Shown piece after piece: positions 14,896 to 16,265 of a DNA stretch of 36,609 nucleotides (position 1 is the first letter of the stretch; each line of letters begins with the position of its first letter). The DNA comes from a virus (Duplodnaviria > Heunggongvirae > Uroviricota > Caudoviricetes). Both the position numbers and the translations under genes were made by a program. A model generated the notes under the pieces. The model ran no database searches and was not told where the DNA came from. It worked only from the letters and a program-made list of their open reading frames with translations. The stretch lies in IMG/VR virus record IMGVR_UViG_2698536401_000015; one strand, written 5' to 3'.

Positions 14896-15011
14896 TCTGG
14901 GCCTTGGTATTCGTTGGGCTTGGTCTATCTAGTACTTATCCATTGGCTCGGCTTCTTTTACGTTTCCGCTTCTGATTTGCGGTGACCTGCCCCCACGATT
15001 AGATACAACAC

Positions 15012-15845
15012 TCAGTTAGTAACGTCGGAATCTTCATTCTCAGAATGACCCTTTCTCCAGCCCGCTGCAAATTCAGACGGTGTCTGATAATTCAGCGTGG
15101 AGTGCGGGCGGCATTCGTTATAATCCTGCCGCCAGTCATTAATAATTTTCCTGGCATGAACGATATCGCTGAACCAGTGCTCATTCAAACATTCATCGCG
15201 AAATCGTCCGTTAAAGCTCTCAATAAATCCGTTCTGCGTTGGCTTGCCCGGCTGGATTAAGCGCAACTCAACACCATGCTCAAAGGCCCATTGATCCAGT
15301 GCACGGCAAGTGAACTCCGGCCCCTGGTCAGTTCTTATCGTCGCCGGATAGCCTCGAAACAGTGCAATGCTGTCCAGAATACGCGTGACCTGAACGCCTG
15401 AAATCCCAAAGGCAACAGTGACCGTCAGGCATTCCTTTGTGAAATCATCGACGCAGGTAAGACACTTGATCCTGCGACCGGTGGAAAGTGCGTCCATGAC
15501 GAAATCCATCGACCAGGTCAGATTGGGCGCCGCCGGACGGAGCAGCGGCAGACGTTCTGTTGCCAGCCCTTTACGACGTCTTCTGCGTTTTACGCCCAGG
15601 CCACTGAGGTGATAAAGCCGGTACACGCGCTTATGATTAACATGAAGCCCTTCACGGCGCAGCAACTGCCAAATACGACGGTAGCCAAAACGCCTGCGCT
15701 CCAGTGCCAGCTCAGTGATGCGCCCTGATAAATGCGCATCAGCAGCCGGACGGTGAGCCTCATAGCGGCAGGTCGACAGGGATAAACCTGTAAGCCTGCA
15801 GGCACGACGTTGCGACAGACCGGTCGCATCACACATCAACATCAC
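15012..15845 (-). CDS. IS3-family transposase OrfB (DDE catalytic domain)
   Basis: 277-aa ORF with the DDE integrase core; reading frame stays open upstream of the first ATG, consistent with OrfAB production by -1 frameshifting. Confidence 0.85.
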
Positions 15846-15868
15846 GGCTTCCCGCTTCTGGTCTGTCG

Positions 15869-16132
15869 TCAGTACTTTCGCCCAAGAGCCACCTGAAGCG
15901 CCTCTTTATCCAGCATGGCTTCGGCAAGCAGCTTCTTGAGTCTGGCGTTCTCTTCCTCAAGCGACTTCAGGCGCTTAACTTCAGGCACCTCCATACCGCC
16001 ATACTTCTTACGCCAGGTGTAAAACGTGGCATCGGAAATGGCATGCTTGCGGCAGAGTTCACGGGCGGGTACCCCAGCTTCGGCTTCGCGGAGAATACTG
16101 ATGATCTGTTCGTCGGAAAAACGCTTCTTCAT
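15869..16132 (-). CDS. IS3-family transposase OrfA (HTH, leucine-zipper)
   Basis: 87 aa, [20 protein letters not shown]... with HTH and a heptad leucine region; immediately upstream of orfB. Confidence 0.85.
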
Positions 16133-16265
16133 GGGGATGTCCTCATGTGGCTTATGAAGACATTACTAACATCGGGGTGTACTAATCAACGGGGAGCAGG
16201 TCAGCGGTTCGTGGTACTCCCTCAATTTGCACCTCCTGTATCGGCGAGGTGAGAGATAACTACAA

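Follow-up and report, generated by a model that had tools for sequence, protein, structure and literature searches.

An apparently recent ISSen4 insertion in the predicted late-operon leader of a lambdoid prophage

An insertion sequence (IS) lies just upstream of the holin gene in the 36,609-nucleotide stretch of viral DNA analysed here (the window). Its position raises the question of whether the lysis and morphogenesis genes of the phage have been cut off from their promoter, or whether transcription can pass through the element and leave these genes expressed.

The window begins in proA and continues with the gene for tRNA-Thr(CGT) (thrW, positions 1369-1444) and then the integrase gene, an arrangement that identifies the host as E. 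coli. Judged from its sequence, the prophage is a lambdoid phage of the SfV/SfII/SfIV type, with an HK97-type head and a contractile tail. Positions 1-2622 place it at thrW beside proA, which is the site of the Shigella serotype-converting phages. The proA-thrW-integrase sequence is 100% identical in many E. coli genomes, whose late regions are mosaic and different. Around the IS the order is Q, a hairpin, a protease gene in reverse orientation, a noncoding leader, the IS, holin, endolysin and Rz/Rz1. The genes are as follows.

13021-13386, plus strand: Q, the late-gene antiterminator, 121 aa (PF06530 Phage_antitermQ, 180.5 bits; phrog_79)
13591-14586, minus strand: SDH-type ClpP-like serine protease, a moron, 331 aa (PF01972, E = 1.9e-14)
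16266-16592, plus strand: holin of the lambda family (class I), the first late gene (PF05106, 89.6 bits, E = 1.9e-25; phrog_126)
16596-17078, plus strand: endolysin (GH104 / lambda R-like; phrog_90, E = 1.5e-63)
17023-17535, plus strand: Rz spanin with an embedded Rz1-type frame (PF03245 Phage_lysis, 138 bits)

The Q protein is 90% identical to that of phage cdtI, 84% to that of SfIV and about 49% to those of H-19B and VT2-Sakai, and has a distant match to the solved Q21 structures (E = 3e-4). A hairpin at 13391-13420, directly after the Q stop codon, has a perfect 12-bp stem with T-runs on both sides and resembles a bidirectional terminator that would end transcription of both Q and the convergent protease gene. 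The protease moron, which has a GC content of 40-43%, bears the annotation 'SDH family Clp fold serine proteinase' in AH04, a relative without the IS. A PADLOC defence-system search of the flanking morons, including the protease, gave no match.

The holin gene is annotated as holin in AH04, SfIV and SfII. Its product matches Phage_holin_3_1 and the gene heads the holin-endolysin-Rz/Rz1 cassette, as is characteristic of class I holins. The endolysin gene is annotated in AH04 as coding for a glycoside hydrolase family 104 protein, and the Rz1-type open reading frame overlapping Rz (17150-17494) contains an LSGC lipobox-like motif. Farther downstream, a 260-aa open reading frame (17593-18375, plus strand, GC 35-38%) lies between Rz/Rz1 and the HNH endonuclease gene. 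It is missing from the AH02/AH04 relative. Neither Pfam nor PADLOC gives a match, and the phrog that it matches, phrog_8440, is of unknown function. The same slot is occupied in SfII by IS911 and a hypothetical gene.

The inserted element and its borders have the following parts.

14979-14982, no strand: GCGG, left copy of the 4-bp target-site duplication (the empty sites of AH04 and SfIV have one GCGG)
14983-16203, minus strand: ISSen4 (IS3 family, IS1222-like), 100% identical to ISSen4-annotated copies
14983-15027, no strand: terminal inverted repeat at the orfB-distal end (IRR in the orientation of the IS), from gapped alignment with the other end
15012-15845, minus strand: orfB, the DDE (rve) catalytic part (PF00665, 85.8 bits; PF13683, rve_3, 108.4 bits)
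15785-15902, minus strand: programmed -1 ribosomal frameshift element (Rfam RF00383, IS1222_FSE)
15869-16132, minus strand: orfA, the helix-turn-helix part of the transposase, 87 aa (PF01527 HTH_Tnp_1, 84.4 bits)
16159-16203, no strand: terminal inverted repeat at the orfA-proximal end (IRL in the orientation of the IS), adjoining the holin side, from gapped alignment
16204-16207, no strand: GCGG, right copy of the 4-bp target-site duplication, read from the sequence

In megablast, the sequence between 14983 and 16203 matches copies elsewhere, in unrelated contexts on chromosomes and plasmids, at 100% identity and from position 1 to position 1221 exactly, in agreement with the length of 1221 bp given in the original prediction. 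The best match is at least 99% identical to the element in 431 E. coli records and in 687 plasmid records, the latter from Klebsiella, Enterobacter, Citrobacter, Salmonella and others. The full-length copies among the matches listed are all annotated as 'IS3-like element ISSen4 family transposase'. Identity with ISSen4 is understood here as 100% identity over 1221 bp to RefSeq copies named as ISSen4 family by PGAP.

The two genes of the element are consecutive and partly overlapping, and orfB is read in frame -1 with respect to orfA. The match to RF00383 is full length, at 156.6 bits (gathering score 45), and the slippery site G_CGA_AAG is found at 15875-15881. IS1222 makes its transposase by means of G_CGA_AAG, an unusual slippery site (PMC5009743). 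When orfA and orfB are joined at this site, the resulting OrfAB fusion is open over 373 aa and matches the NCBIfam model of IS3 family transposases (NF033516) with 308.9 bits at a cutoff of 160. Its candidate catalytic residues lie within the motifs WSMD, RTDQG and IESFN. The frame arrangement, the frameshift element, the rve domains and the NF033516 match confirm that the element belongs to the IS3 family, as had been proposed. In identical copies elsewhere the transposase is annotated as intact, with a 'programmed frameshift'. Because the OrfAB fusion is open and matches NF033516, and because identical copies are annotated as intact, the element is an intact and presumably active ISSen4.

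The element thus has the same full 1221-bp sequence, orfA/orfB arrangement, programmed frameshift and 4-bp duplications as ISSen4 and does not differ from it; only the insertion site is new. With IS1222 of Enterobacter (Pantoea) agglomerans it shares the full-length Rfam frameshift-element match and the slippery site, as well as the length, which we take to be 1221 bp in IS1222 too. Like IS1222, the element presumably falls into the IS407 group of the IS3 family. Duplications of 4 bp are typical of this group, and the element, with its 4-bp duplications and a frameshift element of IS1222 type, fits such an assignment.

The ends of the element read TGACCTGC... at 14983 and ...GCAGGTCA at 16203, which fits the 5'-TG...CA-3' rule of the IS3 family. 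The terminal 12-mer TGACCTGCYCCC occurs in the window only at both ends of the element, compared with 0.18 matches expected by chance. The terminal inverted repeats had been described as matching. This holds for the terminal 8 nt (TGACCTGC), which are identical, but the repeats are otherwise imperfect and can be aligned over a further ~45 nt only with small indels, so that the description was slightly overstated. With a slash marking each border, the junctions read gcgg/TGACCTGCCCCC...GGGAGCAGGTCA/gcgg or, when extended, ...ttctgatttGCGG/TGACCTGCCCCCACGATTAG...CTAATCAACGGGGAGCAGGTCA/GCGGttcgtgg....

The two GCGG copies are identical, in accordance with the perfect duplication originally reported. 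With independently fixed borders, the chance of identity between 4-bp flanks is 1/256. Duplications of 4 bp are also found at all eight of eight independent, 100%-identical copies (seven in E. coli chromosomes and one in a Citrobacter plasmid), and they differ from copy to copy (GCTG, GAGT, AAGC, GAGG, TAAA, AATC, GCCC and GTCG). Copies of this IS thus regularly have a 4-bp duplication, a size within the 3-5 bp usual in the IS3 family, and the GCGG repeat is no coincidence.

Comparison with related prophages lacking the IS, which the original prediction had suggested, recovers the empty site. When the left flank is joined to the right flank through one GCGG, the resulting query aligns without interruption to 47 E. 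coli genomes at 96-97.5% identity, and its junction is spanned in Shigella phages SfIV and SfII. In the aligned empty sites AH04 and SfIV have a single GCGG at the junction and SfII has GCTG. Positions 11410-14983 and 16204-17071 of the window abut, with a 5-bp overlap, on an IS-free circular record of strain AH02 (43.68 kb; L007). It could be argued that the arrangement is a chance resemblance, an assembly artefact or the product of an IS-mediated rearrangement (an adjacent deletion or inversion) instead of a simple insertion. This is exceedingly improbable, given the seamless joining of the flanks at one GCGG in AH04 and SfIV and their contiguity in the 47 genomes, the two full-length IS ends that are 100% identical to those of other copies, and the regular occurrence of 4-bp duplications at ISSen4 copies. 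The empty-site alignment rules out the rearrangement or artefact reading.

The occupied site was found in none of 5426 complete E. coli genomes (600-bp left-junction query, at least 80% coverage), and an exact 36-mer scan of the GTDB representative genomes gave no match to the occupied junction. Because the occupied junction is present in no genome searched and the insertion shows no decay, the insertion is, on this evidence, recent and private to the source strain, as had been supposed. In this reading, a simple insertion not long ago brought ISSen4 into the late operon's untranslated leader and duplicated GCGG. A recent simple insertion of ISSen4 in the late leader, together with the probable read-through and retained prophage function described below, is very likely the correct explanation of the locus as a whole.

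Two observations were made in the course of these searches. Records of E. coli C, NCTC122, C122 and WG5 derivatives each contain 19-20 places that match the ISSen4-containing junction query, the best of them with 98.7-99.4% identity, which suggests an expansion of ISSen4 in this lineage. The closest IS-free relative of the prophage has a chromosomal copy and, in addition, a circular record of its own, 43.7 kb long and entered as a plasmid (NZ_CP081704.1, strain AH02; NZ_CP081794.1, strain CT01). The circular record is probably the excised phage genome, suggesting spontaneous induction or excision of the relative in the AH02 and CT01 strains.

The location of the late promoter determines what the IS separates. 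In the textbook cassette, PR' follows directly after Q. In the prophage, a homologue of this promoter is found ~1.45 kb away from Q. A late promoter directly after Q was considered and rejected: the sequence there starts with a hairpin and is not conserved between the window and SfIV. A conserved block extends from ~14806 to ~14897, ~1.4-1.45 kb downstream of Q and ~85 bp upstream of the insertion point. It is common to SfIV and SfII despite the entirely different morons that follow Q in these phages, and its 80-bp core (~14811-14890) is also present in cdtI, the phage with the closely similar Q. The core aligns in register with the sequence directly after Q in H-19B and VT2-Sakai (82.8% and 81.0% identity, respectively, 58 nt). 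In the Stx phages of the Sakai strain, the PR' start was mapped by dRNA-seq 258 nt upstream of the 3' end of tR' (Sy et al., PMC7547250). Counted back from the T-tract of tR', the start falls on GATAAGA, directly after TATCAT. By homology to the mapped PR', the late promoter and leader of the prophage are predicted to be arranged as follows.

14831-14853, plus strand: predicted late promoter core, from in-register alignment with H-19B and VT2-Sakai
14831-14836, plus strand: predicted -10 hexamer TAATCT, from alignment with the Stx-phage PR'
~14837-14843, plus strand: predicted late start site, from alignment with the mapped PR' start
14845-14853, plus strand: TGGTTACTT, a -10-like candidate sigma-dependent pause element, by resemblance
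14867-14897, plus strand: terminator-like hairpin and T-tract in the leader, from a terminator scan and RNAfold (stem of 8 pairs, 5 of them GC)

In sequence, the pause-element candidate TGGTTACTT is similar to an extended -10 element; its position is about +3 to +16. The -35 region of the predicted promoter is poor. Shortly before the -10 hexamer there is a GC-rich dyad (14811-14819) that varies between Q alleles, being GCGGTCCGC with the Q of the window, cdtI, SfIV and F5505, GCGTACGC in SfII and ACGATCGT in H-19B/Sakai. The dyad may be a Q-binding element that co-varies with Q.

The leader hairpin is conserved in AH04, SfIV, SfII, cdtI, F5505-C1 and the Stx phages. A second, weaker terminator candidate in the leader ends near 14960. 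Since there is no better candidate before the holin gene, the hairpin at 14867-14897 is taken as the working tR'. In the Stx phages the homologous hairpin is situated at ~+27 to +50 of the PR' transcript (in VT2-Sakai ~48-70 nt after the Q stop), and the mapped tR' is at +258. The early leader hairpin may not be the effective terminator here, and may act as a partial terminator or as a part of Q loading. A search for RNA families in the leader found none: Rfam (gathering score, E <= 1) returned only the IS frameshift element and tRNA-Thr.

The insertion point is ~85 nt past the leader hairpin and 62 nt before the ATG of the holin gene (16266), close to the ~60 bp initially estimated. The IS thus lies at about +140 of the predicted late transcript, with its transposase genes antisense. 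This gives the order promoter homologue-IS-holin and bears out the structural part of the original prediction, in which the IS comes between the late promoter and the genes for lysis and morphogenesis.

The prophage has the same Q family (PF06530) as H-19B and 933W/Sakai, and its -10 hexamer, start region and early transcribed region are homologous to theirs and likewise precede a hairpin. However, Q and the promoter are parted here by a reverse-oriented moron of ~1 kb, and the tR' at +258 and the StxS region of the Stx phages are missing. A separation of 1-2.5 kb between the Q gene and the late-promoter block recurs in phages with this family of Q. The slot corresponds to positions 13386-14897 of the window, 1468-4100 of the SfIV record (L002), 2309-4080 of the SfII record (L004), 1031-2600 of the cdtI record (L003) and 33071-35020 of the F5505-C1 record (L016). 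Its cargo is reverse-oriented and differs from phage to phage: the SDH protease in the window, hypothetical genes in SfII, SfIV and cdtI, an NYN-domain gene in F5505-C1, and IS1 in two of the phages. The position of the late promoter far from Q, behind a moron slot, affects the annotation of late operons in SfV-like and cdtI-like prophages, and as a side result is more useful than the IS finding.

Assuming that this anatomy is right, transcription probably reads through the IS and is attenuated only partially, if at all. In the lysogen, the IS would be without effect, because transcripts from the late promoter would already stop at the leader terminator before reaching it. After induction, the added 1.2 kb would be transcribed by Q-modified RNA polymerase, and expression of the holin, endolysin, spanin and morphogenesis genes would continue, perhaps with some loss. 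We favour read-through because a terminator scan found no canonical intrinsic terminator on the plus strand of the IS, because the ribosome-binding region of the holin gene and the 58 nt upstream of its ATG are untouched, because the late genes are collinear with those of an IS-free relative (the downstream structural genes are ~97.5% identical and the open reading frames of the window match the annotated genes in size), and because sister phages provide precedents. Phage SfII has been induced and is infectious, infecting three serotypes (PMC3772137). Within its late operon, the orfA and orfB genes of IS911 lie antisense between Rz1 and the HNH/terminase genes. The SfII transposase orfB is 208 aa long, seemingly shorter than a full IS911 orfB, and the element may be a remnant. 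SfIV has likewise been induced and is an infectious phage (PMC3851460). In SfIV and in the F5505-C1 prophage, IS1 genes occupy the slot between Q and the promoter, upstream of the promoter block. Of SfII and SfIV, then, only SfII is a clear precedent for IS-derived genes downstream of the late promoter. SfII, SfIV and F5505-C1 all carry IS-derived genes in or beside the region between Q and the late genes, as does the prophage, but the IS families and positions differ: IS911 of SfII follows the lysis cassette, whereas ISSen4 lies between the promoter/terminator and the holin gene. A literature search on IS polarity in Q-dependent late operons returned no papers.

IS insertions in operon leaders are classically polar, and the 1.2 kb of untranslated antisense IS RNA might terminate late transcripts (in a Rho-dependent manner or at cryptic sites) or deplete them, grounding the prophage as a step in its domestication. 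The plus strand of the IS is untranslated and contains more C than G (351 versus 303), and a relaxed scan finds several weak, irregular hairpin-plus-T candidates in it. In addition, selection has not tested over time an insertion that is private to one strain. The lack of a canonical intrinsic terminator and the viability of SfII with antisense IS911 genes in its late operon argue against such a block. So does the resistance of Q-loaded polymerase to termination, the Q-loaded complexes ignoring both pause sites and terminators (bioRxiv 10.1101/651190). A polar block is possible but unlikely. Some residual polarity could persist if Q modification were incomplete, because a C-rich untranslated strand favours the loading of Rho; lambdoid Q proteins reportedly also suppress Rho-dependent terminators, a result attributed to Yang and Roberts in 1989. 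A related proposal, that the IS is a functional switch which uncouples the lysis and virion genes from Q and leaves a grounded prophage unable to lyse its host, is rather doubtful. If it were true, the morons expressed in lysogeny and the constitutive short RNA of the late promoter would stay intact, and the prophage would represent a freshly caught first step of domestication by an IS.

The original prediction also allowed for an outward promoter of the IS, which might drive the holin gene and the lysis cassette without Q. The ends of IS3-family elements carry partial promoter elements, with an outward -35 in IRR, and one promoter-like site with 9/12 matches is present on the plus strand inside the IS (15609-15637). 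Nevertheless, a consensus scan finds three promoter-like sites where 3.5 are expected by chance, none of them near the holin-proximal end. From what is known of the family, IRR should here point toward the late promoter and away from holin, and constitutive synthesis of holin and endolysin would kill the lysogen. Rewiring of this kind is highly improbable, and an outward promoter toward holin, unsupported by a scan that does not exceed chance, was rejected. Read-through by the Q-modified polymerase is the reading that we retain.

Both the element and its mechanism of insertion are already known, and the landing of an IS in the regulatory leader of a prophage is a familiar event. ISSen4 is widespread and IS insertions in prophages are common, so that the insertion carries little weight beyond annotation: records of the prophage should note ISSen4 in the late leader and make no presumption about inducibility in either direction. 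The source strain and the IS-free relatives (such as the AH02/AH04 prophage) form a natural pair for studying whether late operons tolerate IS insertions through Q antitermination.
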